Shown piece after piece: positions 6,849 through 15,289 of a DNA stretch of 15,304 nucleotides; the stretch's first letter is position 1; each line of letters starts with the position of its first letter. A model generated the notes under the pieces. It did not search any database. It had not been told where the DNA came from and saw only the letters and a program-made list of their open reading frames with translations. Position numbers and translations under genes: made by a program. Origin of the DNA: a virus; the UHGV virus genome UHGV-0078760. One strand, given 5' to 3'.

Positions 6849-7415
6849 GTGGATAAACAACACTGGAAAGTAGAGCGACAACCAGCTTGGCTGGTGGCTG
6901 CAATCAAAAGAACGATCGCCGAAATGTCTGGTGGGTATGCCGAAGCAGCTGAATGGCTTGGTCTGTACCGCGCTGGAAAACTCTCAACGGATGCACTCTA
7001 TAACCGACTACGTAACGAAGGTGATCAAATTTTCCCGCTTGAGTGGGCGATGGTGCTTCAGGATGCGAGCGGTACTAAGTATGTCACCGATGCGATAGCC
7101 CGCCGTAGTGGTGGTGTATTCGTTCCGCTGGTGGAAGTAGATGATCTTGATAACGGCGATATCAACCAGCGTCTGATGGAGTCAATCGAATGGATTGGCA
7201 AACACTCGCAGTACCTGCGTAAGGCAACCGCCGACGGGGTTATTGATCCGGCAGAACGTGAGCAGATTGAAGAGAACAGTTATCAGGTAATGGCTAAGTG
7301 GCAGGAGCATTTGACGCTGCTATTCCGTGTTTTCTGCGCGCCAGAAAAGAATGACGCCCGCGAGTGTGCAGCTCCGGGCGCCTTGGCGAACAACTCTTCG
7401 AGTATGGAGAAATAA
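6849..7415 (+). CDS. YdaT-like protein in the CII position (putative lysis/lysogeny regulator)
   Basis: 188-aa ORF directly after cro; GTG start with AGGGGA SD 5 nt upstream. The YdaS/YdaT-type pairing is recalled from Rac-like prophages; homology not verified. Confidence 0.65.
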   Translation: MDKQHWKVERQPAWLVAAIKRTIAEMSGGYAEAAEWLGLYRAGKLSTDALYNRLRNEGDQIFPLEWAMVLQDASGTKYVTDAIARRSGGVFVPLVEVDDLDNGDINQRLMESIEWIGKHSQYLRKATADGVIDPAEREQIEENSYQVMAKWQEHLTLLFRVFCAPEKNDARECAAPGALANNSSSMEK

Positions 7416-7587
7416 TCCGCATGAGCAGTTTAACGGCTTTTAACCGTCTACCGCAACTCAGGATGATCCCGGTTTCGGGTACTCCGTTGTTTCGGTATGA
7501 ACGCAGATTATCAAACCGCTGGATTCCGTGTAACCACAGTAGGGCGGTTTCAATTGTGGGGGTCTACAACCGGAGGGCAAAACGCCA

Positions 7588-7767
7588 GTGCGCGAACTTA
7601 ACCGAAGGTTCAAAGACCACCGCGGAGTGTCTGTCCGTGTTATCCGCTGGGAACCAGAAACACAACGCGTTATCTACCTGCGTGATGGCTACCCGCACGA
7701 ATGCTTCAGCCCACTTGAGCATTTCAGGCAAAAGTTCAGGGAGATAACGGACGATCATGAGCACTAA
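7588..7767 (+). CDS. Possible small ORF, 59 aa (MRELNRRFKDHRGVSVRVIRWEPETQRVIYLRDGYPHECFSPLEHFRQKFREITDDHEH); GTG start
   Basis: Manual translation; protein-like composition in contrast to the S/R-rich 108-aa track ORF (7364..7747) in another frame. GGAGG 10 nt upstream of GTG; 3' end overlaps the initiator gene by 11 nt. Speculative. Confidence 0.25.
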   Translation: MRELNRRFKDHRGVSVRVIRWEPETQRVIYLRDGYPHECFSPLEHFRQKFREITDDHEH

Positions 7768-8614
7768 ATTAACCGGCTACGTATGGGATGGTTGCGCGGC
7801 GTCGGGCATGAAGTTGTCTAGTGTCGCGATCATGGCGCGCCTTGCTGATTTTAGCAGCGATGAGGGGGTGTGCTGGCCGTCTATTGAAACTATCGCTCGC
7901 CAGCTTGGCGCAGGGCCGAGCACTATCAGAACGGCAATCGCTAAGCTTGAAAAAGATGGCTGGCTCACGCGTACACAGCGCCGTAATGGTAACCGTAATG
8001 CTTCGAACGTTTACCGCCTGAATGTGGCGAAACTTCAGGCTGCCGCATTTTCTCAACTGTCAGATTCTGACACGTCAAAATCTGACGCATCAAATTTTGA
8101 CACCTCAAAAGCTGACCCGTCGAAATCTGGCAAAAATGGCGGTTTTGACCCGTCAGAATCTGGCGGGGATCCGTCAGTAAAATCAAAACAAGATCCACAA
8201 GTAACTTCAAAACCCTCTTGTCCGGTTGCGGCGCAACCAGACCCTGAAGTCGTGATTACTGATCAGGCAATTTTGGTTCTGACCCATTTGAACCAGATCA
8301 GCGGATCCCGGTATCAGAAATCAAAAACATCCCTGGAGAACATCCGTGCCCGACTGCGTGAGGGATACAGCGTTGCAGACCTGCAACTTGTTATCGACCT
8401 GAAGCATGAGCACTGGCACGAGAACGACGAGCAGTACCAGTACATGCGTCCGGAAACGCTGTTCGGCCCGAAGAAATTCGAGAGCTATCTGCAAAGCGCT
8501 ACCTGCTGGGAGCAGAAGGGACGGCCTAAACGGGCTGACTGGGGCGCGAAAAAGCGCGATGTGATGGCTTTTGGTCCGGTTGAAACAACGATTCCAGAGG
8601 GGTTCAGAGGATGA
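7757..8614 (+). CDS. Replication initiator protein (N-terminal winged-helix DNA-binding domain; C-terminal conserved phage replication domain); lambda O analogue
   Basis: 285 aa in the O position; low-complexity Ser/Asp/Lys-rich central linker encoded by DNA iterons; C-terminal segment (..ILVLTHLNQISGSRYQ...ETLFGPKKFESYL..) recalled as the Phg_2220_C-type domain of phage replication proteins. Confidence 0.8.
   Translation: MSTKLTGYVWDGCAASGMKLSSVAIMARLADFSSDEGVCWPSIETIARQLGAGPSTIRTAIAKLEKDGWLTRTQRRNGNRNASNVYRLNVAKLQAAAFSQLSDSDTSKSDASNFDTSKADPSKSGKNGGFDPSESGGDPSVKSKQDPQVTSKPSCPVAAQPDPEVVITDQAILVLTHLNQISGSRYQKSKTSLENIRARLREGYSVADLQLVIDLKHEHWHENDEQYQYMRPETLFGPKKFESYLQSATCWEQKGRPKRADWGAKKRDVMAFGPVETTIPEGFRG
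8066..8180. repeat. Candidate origin of replication: iterons of a 10-bp near-palindrome TGACnCnTCA at about 15-bp spacing inside the initiator gene, followed by an A-rich tract
   Basis: TGACACGTCA 8068-8077, TGACGCATCA 8083-8092, TGACACCTCA 8098-8107, TGACCCGTCG 8113-8122, TGACCCGTCA 8146-8155, plus degenerate copies; A-rich 8177-8215. Analogous to lambda ori inside gene O. Confidence 0.6.
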
Positions 8615-9930
8615 CGTTAAACAAATATTGCCAGGCGCTGGCGGCACTGCGCAGCAAACCAGCCCACGAACTGAAAGAGGTTGGCGATCAGTGGCGAACA
8701 CCGGATCTGCTTTTCTGGGGTATCAACGCGCTATTTGGTCCATTAGTTCTGGACTTGTTTGCTGACGACGACAACGCGAAGTGCCCGGCATGGTACACCG
8801 CCGAAGATAATGCACTGACACAGGACTGGTCTGAACGTCTGGCAGAACTGGGTGGTGCAGGTTATGGCAACCCACCGTATAGCCGTTCGCAGTACCACGA
8901 GAAACAGGCGATCACCGGCATGACGCACATCATGAACTACGCAGCAGCCCAGCGCGAAAAGGGCGGTCGCTATGTATTCCTGATAAAAGCTGCGCCGAGC
9001 GAAACGTGGTGGCCGGAAGATGCCGATCACATTGTATTCATCCGCGGGCGCATTGGGTTCGATCTGCCAGTGTGGTTTGTACCTGCTGACGAAAAACAAA
9101 AACCCACCAGCGCGTTTTTTGCCGGTGCCATAGCTGTATTCGATAAGTCATGGCGTGGCGAGCGTTTCAGCTATATCAACCGTACAGAACTGGAGGCAAA
9201 AGGGCGTGCGTTTATGGCTTTGGCACAATTTGCTGCCAGCAAACCTCAACCAGCAACGTCCACACCAACAGTAGCCGGTAAGCCAGAAACAGAGTTGCCA
9301 CTCACCCAGAAAGATATTTTTGATATCAGCGGTGTCGAAGCGTGGGCATGTGTTAGAGCTGCGTTCGGCGATAAAGAAGAATACACATTCAGTGAATCGA
9401 AGTTTGGGCATACCTGGGCGGCGGATTCTGTCGAAGCACCGGAATTCTCTCAGGTATCACCATTAACGATCGACAAAGCGAAGCTGCTTATTCGTGAGAG
9501 TATTTTGTTCGGTGTGGATGAGTGGCTGTTGTCGATTCAATTCGATGACGCTGCTGCGCGCCTGGATATGTCGGAACGTATTCGCACTGTTGCCCTTGAA
9601 GCATCCGGTGAATATGGCATGAACAGTGCTGATTTCATTGCAGCTATGGGAAGCCTGGATGTTTCCAGTTGGTCCAATATTCGCCACATCCGCATGCACA
9701 TCCGTGAGAAAGCTAAACCAGTGGCGGATCCGCTTCCCGAGTCCCGTATCTGGCCGTTGGAGGTTGGAATTGTATTCGACCAGGTTGATGGCGCTGACAT
9801 GCTGGATGAATCACAGCAGAACAAGCTGAAAGCCAATATCAATCAACTCTGGCTGGAGCGGACGGCCACCAGCGAAATCATTACTGCAGCTTCTGAACTT
9901 GTTCGCAGTATGAGGGGAGAGGCCGCGTGA
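8611..9930 (+). CDS. Phage Dam-like N6-adenine DNA methyltransferase (N-terminal about 190 aa with NPPY motif) fused to a C-terminal region of about 240 aa of unknown function
   Basis: ATG overlaps the initiator stop (ATGA). Translation shows WRTPDLLF...DLFADDDNA...GNPPYS, recalled as the phage Dam family pattern. The C-terminal half has no motif I recognise. Confidence 0.8.
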   Translation: MTLNKYCQALAALRSKPAHELKEVGDQWRTPDLLFWGINALFGPLVLDLFADDDNAKCPAWYTAEDNALTQDWSERLAELGGAGYGNPPYSRSQYHEKQAITGMTHIMNYAAAQREKGGRYVFLIKAAPSETWWPEDADHIVFIRGRIGFDLPVWFVPADEKQKPTSAFFAGAIAVFDKSWRGERFSYINRTELEAKGRAFMALAQFAASKPQPATSTPTVAGKPETELPLTQKDIFDISGVEAWACVRAAFGDKEEYTFSESKFGHTWAADSVEAPEFSQVSPLTIDKAKLLIRESILFGVDEWLLSIQFDDAAARLDMSERIRTVALEASGEYGMNSADFIAAMGSLDVSSWSNIRHIRMHIREKAKPVADPLPESRIWPLEVGIVFDQVDGADMLDESQQNKLKANINQLWLERTATSEIITAASELVRSMRGEAA

Positions 9931-12005: not shown

Positions 12006-12026
12006 GTGTATGGAGCGCAAAGAAGC

Positions 12027-12716
12027 ATGAATCAACAAGACCTGAATTTTGTAAGAATAGAATTGCGCCGCGCGCTACCTGACCTCTCTGGGGGAACAAA
12101 AGGGCAGCTTGAGGCTTTCAGTGAACACCCACCAGCAGACAAAAATGCCACCCCGCGCCGTGGAATTCATCTCGTCGAACTTGAAGGAGAGAAGGGGCCA
12201 CGCTTTGTTCACTCGCTTTCCGCGCCACTGTATGTACTGGAAACACGCAGCCGCCGCAGGCCAATGCCGCCGATAAAAGATGCGGAATTTGAGTCCGCGC
12301 CGTGGCGTAGGGCAGTGTCCGCGCTTAGTGGATACCAGCAGGCCTGGTTGCGGTACTGCTACGGCTTTGACCTGAGCTATAAGCACCAGGTGATGATGTG
12401 TGAATACGTCTGGAAAACTTATCAGAAATGCCTGGGTGAAAACTCGCTTCAGGAGCGCGTAGTAAAGAAACTGATAGGCCTGGTATGGCTGGCCGGGCAG
12501 GAAATTGCCGCAACCAGAAATAATGAAACCTATAAAGACTATGCTGGTGCAGCGTTGGCCCGCATGGTTAGCGTTGACCGTTCGACATGGTTGCGTGTCT
12601 ATTCAGGGCACTGGGCTGGGTTAAAGGCCGCTTTTACGCAGCTTGATGAATCTGCGTTGGCCATGGCTCTTGAATACTATGAGGAAGAAGAAGCCCTCAA
12701 AGTGGCAGAAATGTGA
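12027..12716 (+). CDS. Putative late-gene antiterminator (Q-like), assigned mainly by position
   Basis: 229 aa from ATG 12027; immediately upstream of a promoter plus intrinsic terminator arrangement preceding the late/lysis genes. No sequence similarity to lambda Q that I can recognise; a different Q family is possible. Confidence 0.5.
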   Translation: MNQQDLNFVRIELRRALPDLSGGTKGQLEAFSEHPPADKNATPRRGIHLVELEGEKGPRFVHSLSAPLYVLETRSRRRPMPPIKDAEFESAPWRRAVSALSGYQQAWLRYCYGFDLSYKHQVMMCEYVWKTYQKCLGENSLQERVVKKLIGLVWLAGQEIAATRNNETYKDYAGAALARMVSVDRSTWLRVYSGHWAGLKAAFTQLDESALAMALEYYEEEEALKVAEM

Positions 12717-12746: not shown

Positions 12747-12775
12747 TTGCAAAATGCAACAAAATAAGCCATATT
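12747..12775 (+). promoter_or_regulatory. Candidate late promoter (PR'-like) with expected Q-utilisation region downstream
   Basis: -35 TTGCAA (12747-12752) - 17 nt - -10 CATATT (12770-12775); about 40-55 nt upstream of an intrinsic terminator, the classical PR'-qut-tR' layout. Confidence 0.4.
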
Positions 12776-12810
12776 TGAAGCATATTTGATATGTTGCCAA
12801 AATTTTATAA

Positions 12811-12833
12811 ACCCGCCGATGAGCGGGTTTTTT
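12811..12833 (+). terminator. Rho-independent terminator (tR'-like) downstream of the Q-like gene
   Basis: Stem ACCCGC / GCGGGT with loop CGATGA (12811-12828) followed by TTTTTT (12828-12833). Confidence 0.7.
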
Positions 12834-12865
12834 GGTATGATGGATTTCTTTTTAGGTGAGTTGTT

Positions 12866-13528
12866 ATGGATATAATTCATTTATTGGAAGTGCTTAATCC
12901 TCTTCAAAATGTAATAACTGTCAAAATTGATAATGACAAAGGGGGCTTTGCGACGTTCAGTGATTTCATAATTGCAGTCGCCCCTACAGTGATTGCTGGT
13001 TTTGCTATTTGGTTTTCTTATAGACAATTCAAAATTAGTCAGAGCAAACAAATTGAACAGTTTAACCATGGAATTAAGCAACAAATTAATGAGTTAAAAA
13101 TAAATACACAACTTGCTACTGAAGTGGAATTAATGAAAGATGAAAGCAAGGCCTTAAGAGAAGCTTTTGTCAGTTTTGTAGATGTCGCTTCATCGATTTA
13201 TAGCAGCAAGTCTGATTTTAAACAGTACGCTGAACGGTTAGGTGAAGATGCACTTAAGCATCAACAGTTATCCTGTCAAGCCATAATTGCTAACAGCAGT
13301 AAGTTCTTGCAAGCTAGATTGTTACTAATCTCTTATCTTAACCTTGATGATCCCGAAGAAAAAAACTTCTACGATTGCATTATTGCTATCGGCGATTGTG
13401 CATTTAATGGCGACGGAACAGGAGAGGATTTAGGGATATTGCAAGGTAAGGGCGCAAGTCTTTGCTTTAAATTAATAAAGAAGAAGCGCGATGCAATATT
13501 AAGCTTAGTAGATAACATCACCGACTAA
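12866..13528 (+). CDS. AT-rich moron: hypothetical protein with a single N-proximal transmembrane helix (FIIAVAPTVIAGFAIWF) and a largely helical soluble region; function unknown
   Basis: 220-aa ORF, ATG with AGGTGA SD 6 nt upstream; codon composition visibly more AT-rich than flanking genes; own extended -10 (TGgTATGAT, 12833-12841) just upstream; hairpin GCCTCTT/AAGAGGC (13543-13559) downstream. Confidence 0.7.
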   Translation: MDIIHLLEVLNPLQNVITVKIDNDKGGFATFSDFIIAVAPTVIAGFAIWFSYRQFKISQSKQIEQFNHGIKQQINELKINTQLATEVELMKDESKALREAFVSFVDVASSIYSSKSDFKQYAERLGEDALKHQQLSCQAIIANSSKFLQARLLLISYLNLDDPEEKNFYDCIIAIGDCAFNGDGTGEDLGILQGKGASLCFKLIKKKRDAILSLVDNITD

Positions 13529-13703
13529 TTACGAAATTTCTGGCCTCTTTTTGAAGAGGCATCCCGCTGTGAAAATGGGCGGCTGGTGGGTGTTAGCGCA
13601 CCCGGCCAGCCATCAGCTCATGCTTTCAGGTCACAAGCTAACCAAGGCCCACCGCTTTAGCGCAAAAGCAACGTGAGCCTATCAGAGTTACGCTTACTGA
13701 TCT

Positions 13704-14756
13704 ATGAAGAATACTGTAAAAATAAACAGTGTTGAGTTAATCAACGCTGATAGCCTGCATTACGTCGCCACCCTCCCGGATAACTCTATTGATCTGATAG
13801 TTACGGATCCGCCGTACTTCAAAGTGAAGCCCAACGGCTGGGACAACCAATGGAAGGGGGACGAGGACTACTTACGCTGGCTTGATAGCTGTCTGGCTGA
13901 GTATGCTCGCGTTCTTAAACCTGCTGGCAGCATCTACTTGTTTTGCGGTCACCGGCTGGCCTCAGACATAGAGATTATGATGCGTGCCCGGTTCAACGTT
14001 TTGAATCATATAATTTGGGCAAAACCATCTGGCCGCTGGAATGGCTGCAACAAAGAAAGCCTGCGTGCGTACTTTCCATCTACGGAACGGATTTTGTTTG
14101 CTGAGCACTATCTTGGGCCGTACACAGGTAAAGAGGACGTTTACGAAAGGAAAAGCACAGAACTAAAGCAGCACATTATGACGCCACTGATTGACTACTT
14201 CCGTAATGCCCGTGAATCACTGGGTGTCAGCTCGAAAGAAATAGCTGAGGCAACCGGAAAGAAAAACATGGCGTCACACTGGTTTGGTGCAAGCCAATGG
14301 CAACTACCAAATGAAGTGGACTATAGAAAATTGCAGGAACTGTTCACGCGGATCGCTATCGATAAGCACATTCAGCAGAAGCTTGAACATCCTCACCACC
14401 AGCTAGTGGCTACCTATCAGTCATTAAACCGCAAGTATTCAGAATTGCTGGAGGAATACAAAACCCTCCGGCGCTGCTTCTCTGTTTCCGCTCTTGTTCC
14501 GTATACCGACGTATGGACGCATAAGCCTGTTCAGTTTTATCCGGGCAAACATCCATGCGAAAACCCTGCCGATATGCTGAAACAGATCATTAGCGCCAGC
14601 AGCAGGCCGGGGGATATCGTTGCCGATTTCTTTATGGGCTCTGGTTCAACTGTGAAAGCAGCAATAGAACTTGGCCGTCGGGCGATCGGCGTAGAACTGG
14701 AAGCTGACAGATTTATTCAGACCACCGAAGAGGTGGAAAAACTGAGCAAAACATAA
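13704..14756 (+). CDS. Beta-class DNA methyltransferase (N6-adenine or N4-cytosine; DPPY motif IV preceding FxGxG motif I)
   Basis: Translation shows LIVTDPPYF near the N-terminus and FFMGSGST near the C-terminus (circularly permuted beta-class order) with a central variable region. No nuclease partner recognisable adjacent. Confidence 0.85.
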   Translation: MKNTVKINSVELINADSLHYVATLPDNSIDLIVTDPPYFKVKPNGWDNQWKGDEDYLRWLDSCLAEYARVLKPAGSIYLFCGHRLASDIEIMMRARFNVLNHIIWAKPSGRWNGCNKESLRAYFPSTERILFAEHYLGPYTGKEDVYERKSTELKQHIMTPLIDYFRNARESLGVSSKEIAEATGKKNMASHWFGASQWQLPNEVDYRKLQELFTRIAIDKHIQQKLEHPHHQLVATYQSLNRKYSELLEEYKTLRRCFSVSALVPYTDVWTHKPVQFYPGKHPCENPADMLKQIISASSRPGDIVADFFMGSGSTVKAAIELGRRAIGVELEADRFIQTTEEVEKLSKT

Positions 14757-14902: not shown

Positions 14903-15289
14903 ATGTCCGATCCGATTTCCGGTACTGGACTGGCTGGTGGTGTCCTTACGGGTGCCAGCGTATATGGATTTCTGTCCGGAACCGATTACGGCGTGGTTTT
15001 TGGCGCGTTTGCCGGAGCTGTATTTTACATTGCGACCACAGCTGACCTGAGTGCAGCGCGCCGTCTGGCATATTTTCTGGTGTCGTATATTGCGGGGATC
15101 CTTTGTTCCGGGCTGGTGGGTTCAAAGCTGGCTCAGGTTACTGGCTACAGTGATAAACCACTGGATGCCATTGGCGCCGTAATCGTTTCTGCTTTAGCCG
15201 TCAAAATCCTGACGTTCCTGAATAATCAGGATGTCGGCTCGCTGGTGGCGCTGATAACGCGCCGGGGAGGTTCAGGTGGTACAAAATGA
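14903..15289 (+). CDS. Putative holin / small multi-pass membrane protein at the head of the lysis cassette
   Basis: 128 aa with 3-4 glycine-rich hydrophobic segments and a charged C-terminus; AAGAGGGGG SD; stop overlaps the ATG of the next gene (ATGA at 15286-15289). Four predicted helices is unusual for a holin, so the call is tentative. Confidence 0.45.
   Translation: MSDPISGTGLAGGVLTGASVYGFLSGTDYGVVFGAFAGAVFYIATTADLSAARRLAYFLVSYIAGILCSGLVGSKLAQVTGYSDKPLDAIGAVIVSALAVKILTFLNNQDVGSLVALITRRGGSGGTK

Follow-up and report, generated by a model that had tools for sequence, protein, structure and literature searches.

In lambdoid phages, the slot between the late control elements (the Q antiterminator gene, the late promoter PR' and the terminator tR') and the lysis genes can hold cargo: Stx phages carry stx there, and DLP12/PA-2 carry nmpC/lc. 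Membrane proteins acting in superinfection exclusion (Sie) or abortive infection (Abi) are also encoded by prophages, among them P22 SieA, lambda/P22 SieB, lambda RexB, lactococcal Sie2009 and AbiP-type proteins. The prototype moron, that of phage HK97, encodes gp15, which resides in the inner membrane and acts in superinfection exclusion (Cumby et al. 2012; PMC3594210). A moron, as defined by Juhala/Hendrix and restated in PMC3594210, is extra DNA relative to close relatives, lying between conserved genes, with deviant composition and its own promoter. A further cargo site, between gpA and gpQ of P2-like prophages, is a hotspot of anti-phage genes; in P2, it is occupied by old and tin (Rousset et al. 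2022; PMC9122126). Here, we describe a gene for a protein of 220 amino acids (aa), ORF220, in a stretch of 15,304 nt from the viral genome UHGV-0078760 (the window). The gene and its promoter form a bounded moron. Whether this moron is expressed in the lysogen and encodes a single-gene phage-exclusion or Abi protein is, in our estimate, an even question, and this is the function that we favour.

The window spanned the left and central regions of a lambdoid prophage, with the gene order integrase, cI-like repressor, replication, Dam methylase, RusA, Ant, DUF968, Q, ORF220, DNA methyltransferase (MTase) and holin. A 100% identical ORF220 protein and locus were present in Citrobacter braakii assemblies and gut metagenomes. 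Positions ~12834-13565 formed a discrete, self-contained, AT-rich moron cassette of ~730 bp in this C. braakii lambdoid prophage. At the left junction, the alignment with Flotzy, Eeyore, Phi06_2987, LLS and phage 434 ended at position 12833, the end of the tR' T-tract. Before this point, these phages with a related Q were collinear with the window over the last part of Q, a PR'-like region and the tR' hairpin with its T-tract. At the right junction, homology to the sister phages restarted at ~13566. Flotzy carried Q, tR', the block preceding the MTase gene (pre-MTase block) and the MTase gene as in the window, and is considered an empty site, since only ~50 nt separated the equivalents of 12833 and ~13566. 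The slot held an unrelated AT-rich gene in Eeyore (181 aa, GC content 0.40), and a lipoprotein-like AT-rich gene (138 aa, GC 0.39) plus a 67-aa gene in mEp460. Because it was empty in one relative and held other cargo in two, the slot after tR' is a variable cargo space. An earlier note on this DNA, made from the sequence alone, had placed the feature at 12832-13562, which agrees almost to the base, and had proposed to compare related prophages for variability of the slot, which this comparison revealed. Its description of the slot as lying between Q/PR'/tR' and the holin holds for the variable cargo position, but the adjoining 3' gene is the MTase gene, and the holin gene comes after it. Terminal direct or inverted repeats, a mark of site-specific mobilisation, were sought at the cassette ends, and only short matches at chance level were found.

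The composition of the cassette also set it apart. The GC content of ORF220 was 0.359, compared with 0.502 for the window, and its GC content at third codon positions (GC3) was 0.326, compared with 0.45-0.61 in the 14 other genes of the window. The ORF220 locus was the strongest AT-rich outlier of the window (z = -3.45 among all 663-nt segments), and none of the 12,642 segments outside the locus had a GC content as low. All homologs had a GC content of 0.32-0.43, compared with 0.46-0.53 in their flanks. Together with the Flotzy backbone lacking the cassette, these values bear out the proposal, made from the AT-rich codon composition, that ORF220 was acquired separately. The locus is a clean, precisely bounded moron with an identifiable empty site.

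The sequence TGgTATGAT, which the earlier note had read as an extended -10 element, directly abuts the tR' T-tract. The pattern TGnTAnnnT was located 24-30 nt 5' of the start codon at 19 of the 20 loci first compared and at 6 of 6 metagenome loci added later (25/26), mostly in the form TGnTATGAT after a T-run and often followed by TTTCTTTTT. The strict motif had a background frequency of 0.044 per kb. The loci compared came from unrelated contexts: lambdoid prophages with three Q families (PF06323, PF06530 and PF03589), prophages of the P2 type, a Buttiauxella phage and a non-phage island. At the lambdoid loci, a significant hairpin stood 5' of the motif even where the upstream gene was the MTase gene (L035; 17-bp stem, z = -7.3), and the P2-like and Buttiauxella loci retained the T-run and -10 only. 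A two-hexamer sigma-70 scan called no full promoter at the cassette, as expected for a promoter type without a -35 element. Since the motif is conserved together with the gene, comparison strongly supports an independent promoter of the sigma-70 extended -10 type, which moves with ORF220. At the other end, every allele had its own GC-rich hairpin 3' of the stop codon; the stems differed, and a T-run followed in some alleles (L008, Kp4866-6). In the window, an 11-nt perfect inverted complement was observed between codons 12-15 (12899-12909, CCTCTTCAAAA) and the 3' arm of the hairpin that follows the gene (13549-13559, TTTTGAAGAGG). Chance alone would give approximately 0.1 matches of this kind in a region as large, and the complement could be a coincidence or could reflect long-range pairing in the mRNA.

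Homologs were sought with single-sequence and profile searches over 5.8 billion clustered proteins, and HMMER was run against all 1.84 billion representatives. The family comprised ~30 clusters (200-240 aa), with members in Citrobacter, Kluyvera, Salmonella, Escherichia, Klebsiella, Enterobacter, Buttiauxella and Yersinia, almost always in prophages. It was confined to Enterobacterales; neither the profile search nor the HMMER pass returned members beyond this order. One profile-search match, a 946-aa repeat protein (P0046), was spurious. As the earlier note had stated, ORF220 had no recognisable motif: Pfam, PADLOC, PHROGs and NCBIfam were all without a match. PADLOC also gave no match for the E. 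coli homolog, and Pfam searches with all 33 members gave scattered weak matches without a recurrent family. Membership in a known defence, Sie or Abi family was not detected with hidden Markov models (HMMs; PADLOC-DB v2 and Pfam SieB, Abi etc.). A sequence profile search of the PDB gave nothing below E = 0.1, tblastn against INPHARED phage genomes and PLSDB plasmids gave no match, and a literature search for the family accessions found no citing paper in the library searched. ORF220 belongs to an uncharacterised orphan family; the protein family is new, and the kind of element that carries it is well known.

The single N-terminal transmembrane (TM) helix proposed in the earlier note was recovered as one moderately hydrophobic segment at residues ~31-52. 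The Kyte-Doolittle maximum over 19 residues was 1.91 in ORF220 and 1.35-2.9 across the family. Two AlphaFold (AF2) models agreed with each other (predicted local distance difference test, pLDDT, 77 and 82). In the models, residues 1-28 had low confidence, the N-terminal part 1-30 (pLDDT <50) was predicted to be disordered or only weakly helical, and one long helix (27/28-122) contained the hydrophobic segment and a stalk. The end of this helix and the helices 127-156, 163-181 and 186-216/219 formed a four-helix bundle with pLDDT ≥90. Conservation was opposite to model confidence, with an entropy of 0.76 for residues 1-10, 1.17 for residues 81-90 and ~3.1 for residues 111-150; columns T81-K91 and R98 were invariant or near-invariant. 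The N-terminal tail had a mean net charge of -2.3. An N-out/C-in orientation is weakly favoured by this acidic tail, the counts of Lys and Arg (K+R) around the TM helix and the Cys counts; a bias towards even numbers of Cys, as a sign of periplasmic disulfides, was absent among the 33 members. Coiled-coil periodicity of the stalk (residues 53-92) was no better than that of 194 of 500 shuffled sequences and hence lacked significance, so no oligomerisation is claimed. Four Cys at positions 94, 101, 196 and 200 (codons 13145-13147, 13166-13168, 13451-13453 and 13463-13465) were present in 28, 18, 19 and 30 of the 33 members, respectively, in the arrangements CxxVRxxC and CxxxC. The helix boundaries suggest that these residues lie near each other on bundle helices 1 and 4, where they may form a metal site or redox switch. 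The predicted bundle fold, continuous with TM1, was shared with the 4HB_MCP family. The sequence-family match, second TM helix and cytoplasmic signalling module of that family were lacking, and the protein ended at the last bundle helix.

ORF220 was 39-65% identical between loci whose DUF968, Q and MTase proteins were 96-99% identical. DNA identity was 95-100% in the flanks, fell to 40-60% in the middle of the gene and returned to 100% directly 3' of the stop codon. This pattern indicates that the alleles are old and functional and are swapped by recombination via the conserved flanks, rather than being products of drift in situ. The ratio of nonsynonymous to synonymous substitution rates (dN/dS) was 0.1-0.3 overall, with dS saturated, which indicates that ORF220 is a real gene under purifying selection. 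The ratio peaked in residues 101-190 and reached ~1-2 in the closest pairs from P2 contexts, which differed by few substitutions. These data bear on the explanation that ORF220 is a decaying or selfish ORF without function, AT-rich junk tolerated in a permissive slot. Such an ORF might be expected to be an unannotated, rare orphan (the lambdoid allele was found in 0 of 5426 complete E. coli genomes) and to lose conserved residues, as the window allele did with three Cys. However, full-length proteins of ~200-240 aa were kept across ~30 clusters, the low dN/dS was seen with saturated dS, the N-terminus, the motif and the promoter were conserved across genera and contexts, and the structure was predicted with confidence. 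The absence of a function is therefore already disfavoured, and we consider it barely credible.

The homologs had no fixed partner and occurred with three Q families and several holin types. The gene preceded the MTase gene in the window and at most Citrobacter, Salmonella and Kluyvera loci, followed it at L035, where the order was reversed, and stood directly before the holin gene, with no MTase gene, at L030-L032 and L037. In the Buttiauxella phage, the homolog was divergent from the adjoining terminase genes. A pairing with the downstream MTase, whose gene the earlier note had proposed to clone together with ORF220 as one option, would resemble a restriction-modification system. It was rejected, since each gene was found alone and the order was flipped at L035: the MTase gene occurred without ORF220 in Flotzy, Eeyore, mEp460 and 845 E. 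coli genomes, and ORF220 occurred without the MTase gene at L030-L032, L037 and the P2 loci.

The same contexts speak to an accessory late or lytic function, either antiholin-like control of lysis timing or preparation of the membrane for lysis or assembly. ORF220 is a predicted membrane protein encoded directly 3' of tR' and 5' of the lysis cassette, so that Q read-through must transcribe it, as the first gene past tR', and at L030-L032 and L037 the gene adjoins the holin gene. Yet Flotzy and like sister phages have intact lysis cassettes without the gene, and the homologs in P2-like prophages and the Buttiauxella phage lie away from lysis genes. Alleles differed by 35-60% beside holins that were 98-100% identical, and similar alleles stood beside different holin families. 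No HMM for holins, antiholins or spanins matched, including those of Pfam and PHROGs, and linkage to lysis genes was not obligate. The conserved sigma-70 promoter, moreover, argues for expression independent of Q. A lytic function is improbable on this evidence.

In E. coli, the homologs were located in P2-like prophages with the order gpA (PF05840), DinI, homolog, portal and terminase (L026, L033 and L042-L044). These homologs, and not the window copy, thus reside in the gpA-gpQ hotspot; an E. coli allele from the hotspot has the accession WP_097331330.1. In strain PSS-15, the homolog adjoins a DUF4325/STAS pair, and in strain A38 a SIR2-like gene takes the place of the homolog. In P4 defence loci, six of eight randomly chosen unknown genes were reported to be protective, and among unknown proteins of P2 a defensive score was given to 15-32% (PMC13586616), which gives a moderate prior for defence. 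The inference of an exclusion or Abi function is strengthened by the residence in gpA-gpQ, the hypervariable alleles in near-identical flanks and the lack of a fixed partner. Since unknown genes are common in prophage hotspots, the cassette is a plausible rather than surprising defence candidate.

We propose the following mechanism for an exclusion or Abi protein of this type. The extended -10 promoter would fire in the lysogen independently of Q and give constitutive expression, to which Q read-through would add late expression. Inserted in the inner membrane, the protein would expose its acidic, conserved N-tail on the outside and keep the stalk and four-helix bundle in the cytoplasm. The membrane-distal, hypervariable part of the bundle (~101-190) could then recognise some component of a phage that enters the cell. 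The effect at the membrane, a block of genome entry or a collapse of membrane integrity, would come from the conserved parts, namely the N-tail, the TM helix and the junction with the stalk. In its widest form, which we hold only tentatively and at somewhat less than even chances, the proposal is that of a new class of single-protein, membrane-anchored immunity factors. In this class, a chemoreceptor-like bundle under diversifying selection would sense the phage component, the N-tail and TM helix would block genome entry or permeabilise the membrane, and the cassette with its own promoter would pass from lambdoid to P2-like prophages and back, and now and then reach a chromosomal island.

Several observations weigh against an exclusion or Abi function expressed in the lysogen, or against parts of the mechanism. 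None of the four family databases recognised ORF220. In the window allele, three of the four Cys are replaced (S94, F101 and G196), which leaves C200 alone. The K+R counts (1.7 in the N-flank and 3.0 in the C-flank) give only a weak prediction of topology; the best fold matches were periplasmic sensor domains, and the bundle could face the periplasm instead. The 3' hairpin of the window allele was not called by the terminator scan and would be a weak terminator, since no T-run follows it. A gene of 34-36% GC could also be silenced by H-NS in the lysogen. Table S5A of Rousset et al. lists loci of this type only as 'hypothetical', with none among the validated systems, and genes without a defence role, such as those for partition systems and the CDT toxin, are found in the hotspots as well (PMC9122126).

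Alternatively, ORF220 might be a lysogenic-conversion factor without a role in defence. Such a membrane protein would change how the host envelope works, how the cell tolerates stress or how it signals, perhaps by serving host four-helix-bundle sensors as a decoy or partner. The moron anatomy and own promoter fit such a factor, as morons encode many functions that benefit the host (PMC3594210). The best fold matches were sensor domains of chemoreceptors and histidine kinases, the P2 hotspots carry cargo other than defence genes, and the lambdoid slot also holds a lipoprotein-like gene and a gene for a periplasmic-binding-like protein. On the other hand, extreme divergence of alleles in near-identical flanks is seen typically in conflict genes, less so in conversion factors of a housekeeping type. 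The sensor domains were just 4-12% identical to ORF220, without a Pfam match, a second TM helix or an output domain, and the N-tail is acidic, whereas the N-tails of chemoreceptors are basic. We therefore regard a conversion factor as unlikely, and continue to favour exclusion or Abi.

Rapid diversification would fit either side of an arms race, and variable hotspots carry anti-defence as well as defence genes. ORF220 might accordingly protect the phage against host or rival immunity, or be a membrane toxin that stabilises the prophage by addiction; HicAB toxin-antitoxin cargo was indeed found nearby in related prophages. No conserved antitoxin-like neighbour was observed, however, and known anti-defence proteins are mostly small, soluble and expressed early, so that a constitutive-type promoter and a membrane anchor would be unusual among them. 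Counter-defence or addiction is, in our judgement, quite improbable.

If ORF220 does exclude phages or abort infection, a compact (~0.7 kb) single-gene defence family would be added to the prophage immune repertoire, with a sensor-like fold so far undescribed among known defence proteins. The allele series (39-65% identical, in isogenic flanks) would then be a ready resource for mapping specificity determinants. The comparison also shows one promoter-bearing cassette moving between two hotspots, the lambdoid post-tR' slot and P2 gpA-gpQ, and supports a search of lambdoid late-region slots for new systems besides the P2/P4 loci. With the clean empty site, the portable promoter and the allele series, the cassette is an unusually tractable candidate. 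If the function is not defence, the locus is still an example of a precisely bounded moron with an empty site.

The features of the cassette and its neighbourhood are listed in Table 1.

Table 1. Positions of the ORF220 cassette features and neighbouring elements in the window
Feature	Positions	Strand	Basis and remarks
Q antiterminator (context)	12006..12716	+	PF06323, E = 2.2e-36; phrog_304, 3.9e-72
Putative PR' late promoter (TTGCAA, 17 nt, CATATT)	12747..12775	+	Read from sequence; block kept in Flotzy and Eeyore
tR'-type intrinsic terminator, 8-bp GC-rich hairpin and T-tract; part of Q module	12809..12833	+	Terminator scan, RNA fold
Extended -10 TGgTATGAT, no -35	12833..12841	+	Conserved motif; predicted transcription start ~12847-12849
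Shine-Dalgarno AGGTGA, 6 nt 5' of ATG	12854..12859	+	Sequence; purine-rich equivalents in homologs
ORF220, predicted bitopic membrane protein, 220-aa orphan, ATG start	12866..13528	+	ORF list, dN/dS, two AF2 models
Residues 1-30, most conserved part (MDIIxLLEVLxP..V.TVKI), acidic	12866..12955	+	Alignments, entropy, charge counts
Residues 31-52, single hydrophobic (TM) helix, near-invariant Pro40	12956..13021	+	Hydropathy, 33 members
Residues 78-98, motif LNTxLATExELxKExCxxVR at stalk-bundle junction	13097..13159	+	Near-invariant columns
Residues 90-216, confident four-helix bundle	13133..13513	+	~101-190 hypervariable, 111-150 most
3' hairpin GCCTCTT-TTTG-AAGAGGC	13543..13560	+	RNA fold
Pre-MTase block, ~135 nt, right flank outside cassette	13566..13703	+	Found also in phages without the ORF
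N6/N4 DNA methyltransferase (context)	13704..14756	+	PF01555, 5e-43; PADLOC MTase_II, 1e-141
Holin, start of lysis cassette (context)	14903..15289	+	PF16931, 3.5e-33

Upstream of the cassette, the putative PR' scored 8/12, under the threshold of the scan. The tR' hairpin (12809-12830) had a predicted folding energy of -12 kcal/mol (z = -2.4), and the terminator was common to Flotzy and Eeyore and matched the annotated terminator of phage 434. Positions 12747-12833 resembled a compact late-promoter unit, in which the hexamers and their spacer are followed by a leader of ~50 nt up to the hairpin. The distal part of the unit (12766-12833) matched the annotated terminator region of phage 434, and the whole unit was kept in Flotzy and Eeyore. 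Rfam and tRNA scans of the window gave nothing at the gathering threshold and no tRNAs; weak sub-threshold matches to Trp/Leu leaders at 12770-12836 merely reflect the terminator-like leader.

Downstream, the pre-MTase block was detected in 845 of 5426 complete E. coli genomes, and ORF220 was absent from all 845. Phages of Citrobacter, E. coli and Klebsiella had a near-invariant block, with an identity of ~88-98% in cases in which that of the MTase protein was only 78-80%; the block was thus more conserved than the adjoining coding DNA. Two stable stem-loops were predicted (fold z = -3.0). No Rfam match was found for the block, nor any covariation, since the block is too invariant. A conserved small ORF is disfavoured by a 1-nt deletion in Flotzy. 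The block could be a leader or regulatory RNA of the MTase gene, or a recombination anchor for cargo exchange.

Other cargo was observed at the slot and elsewhere in these prophages. Gene 051 of mEp460 (L013 2149-2565) is the 138-aa gene of the slot and has a lipoprotein-type signal (MKKVLIAAIGFCLVGCAG), and Eeyore CDS0039 (L040 1111-1656) encodes the 181-aa protein, which is soluble. In L035, the post-tR' region (7020-7865) has a gene for an NMT1_3 periplasmic-binding-like protein (281 aa), which carries a signal peptide. No PADLOC model matched any of the three. In some C. braakii prophages (L008 7953-8591 and L010), a HicA/HicB pair was inserted on the opposite strand between the MTase and holin genes, and this junction is therefore another cargo site of the late region. 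A second variable site is occupied in the window by the Dam-family methylase gene (8611-9930), whose 439-aa product has a long C-terminal extension: L005, L006 and L009 had a shorter Dam (293-299 aa) and a C5 DNA methylase of 644-665 aa instead, with flanking genes ~97-99% identical. In the Buttiauxella phage, a 134-aa protein with an N-terminal TM segment and a helical tail was encoded convergently 3' of the homolog (L015 6695-7099, minus strand). It had no Pfam match, and kinship with the ORF220 family was rejected (hhalign probability 0.5%).

The L045/L046 allele was located outside a recognisable prophage, beside a gene with an Mrr domain and a resolvase gene; its neighbours matched no PADLOC model. 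Upstream of this homolog (L045 4790-4945), AAATGCAGGT was repeated four times in ~140 nt, similar to iterons or recombinase arm sites. Because of the nearby resolvase and Mrr-domain genes, L045 may be a different kind of mobile island with the same cassette as cargo.

Compared with known cargo of the lambdoid slot, ORF220 has the same position 3' of the late terminator, is variably present and would be transcribed by Q read-through plus any promoter of its own. It differs in having no toxin or porin features and in its right boundary, which is a conserved block followed by an MTase gene. With P2 cargo, the family shares the locus itself, as the E. coli homologs lie exactly in gpA-gpQ, beside or in place of the SIR2-like gene and the DUF4325 pair; however, there is no sequence kinship to Old (ATPase-TOPRIM) or Tin, and the window copy is lambdoid. 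The likeness to four-helix-bundle sensor domains (Tsr, Tar, PcaY, QseE and TorS) is one of fold only, with the low identity given above and no Pfam 4HB_MCP match. Unlike these, ORF220 has an acidic N-tail and neither a second TM helix nor a signalling module, and its orientation is probably opposite, with the bundle in the cytoplasm.

SieA, SieB, RexB, Sie2009 and AbiP-type proteins are, like ORF220, encoded by prophages and variable between related phages. They are also anchored in the membrane, as predicted for ORF220, and expressed in the lysogen, as proposed for it, and some are single-gene systems. Homology to them was not detectable with Pfam, PADLOC or PHROGs, and to our knowledge an architecture of N-tail, one TM helix and four-helix bundle has not been described for this group. 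HK97 gp15 is likewise an insert relative to sister phages, with deviant GC content, its own promoter and a bitopic inner-membrane product, the last being predicted for ORF220. In both, the N-terminal region is conserved and the C-terminus has diverged, and the lysogen expression known for gp15 is proposed for ORF220. The two are unrelated in sequence: gp15 is much smaller, related to YebO and encoded in the tail operon, whereas ORF220 has 220 aa and a four-helix bundle, is encoded after tR' and has exclusion only as a candidate function. By analogy, HK97 gp15 and the other membrane-anchored Sie and Abi proteins of prophages would be the closest functional counterparts of ORF220, without shared sequence.

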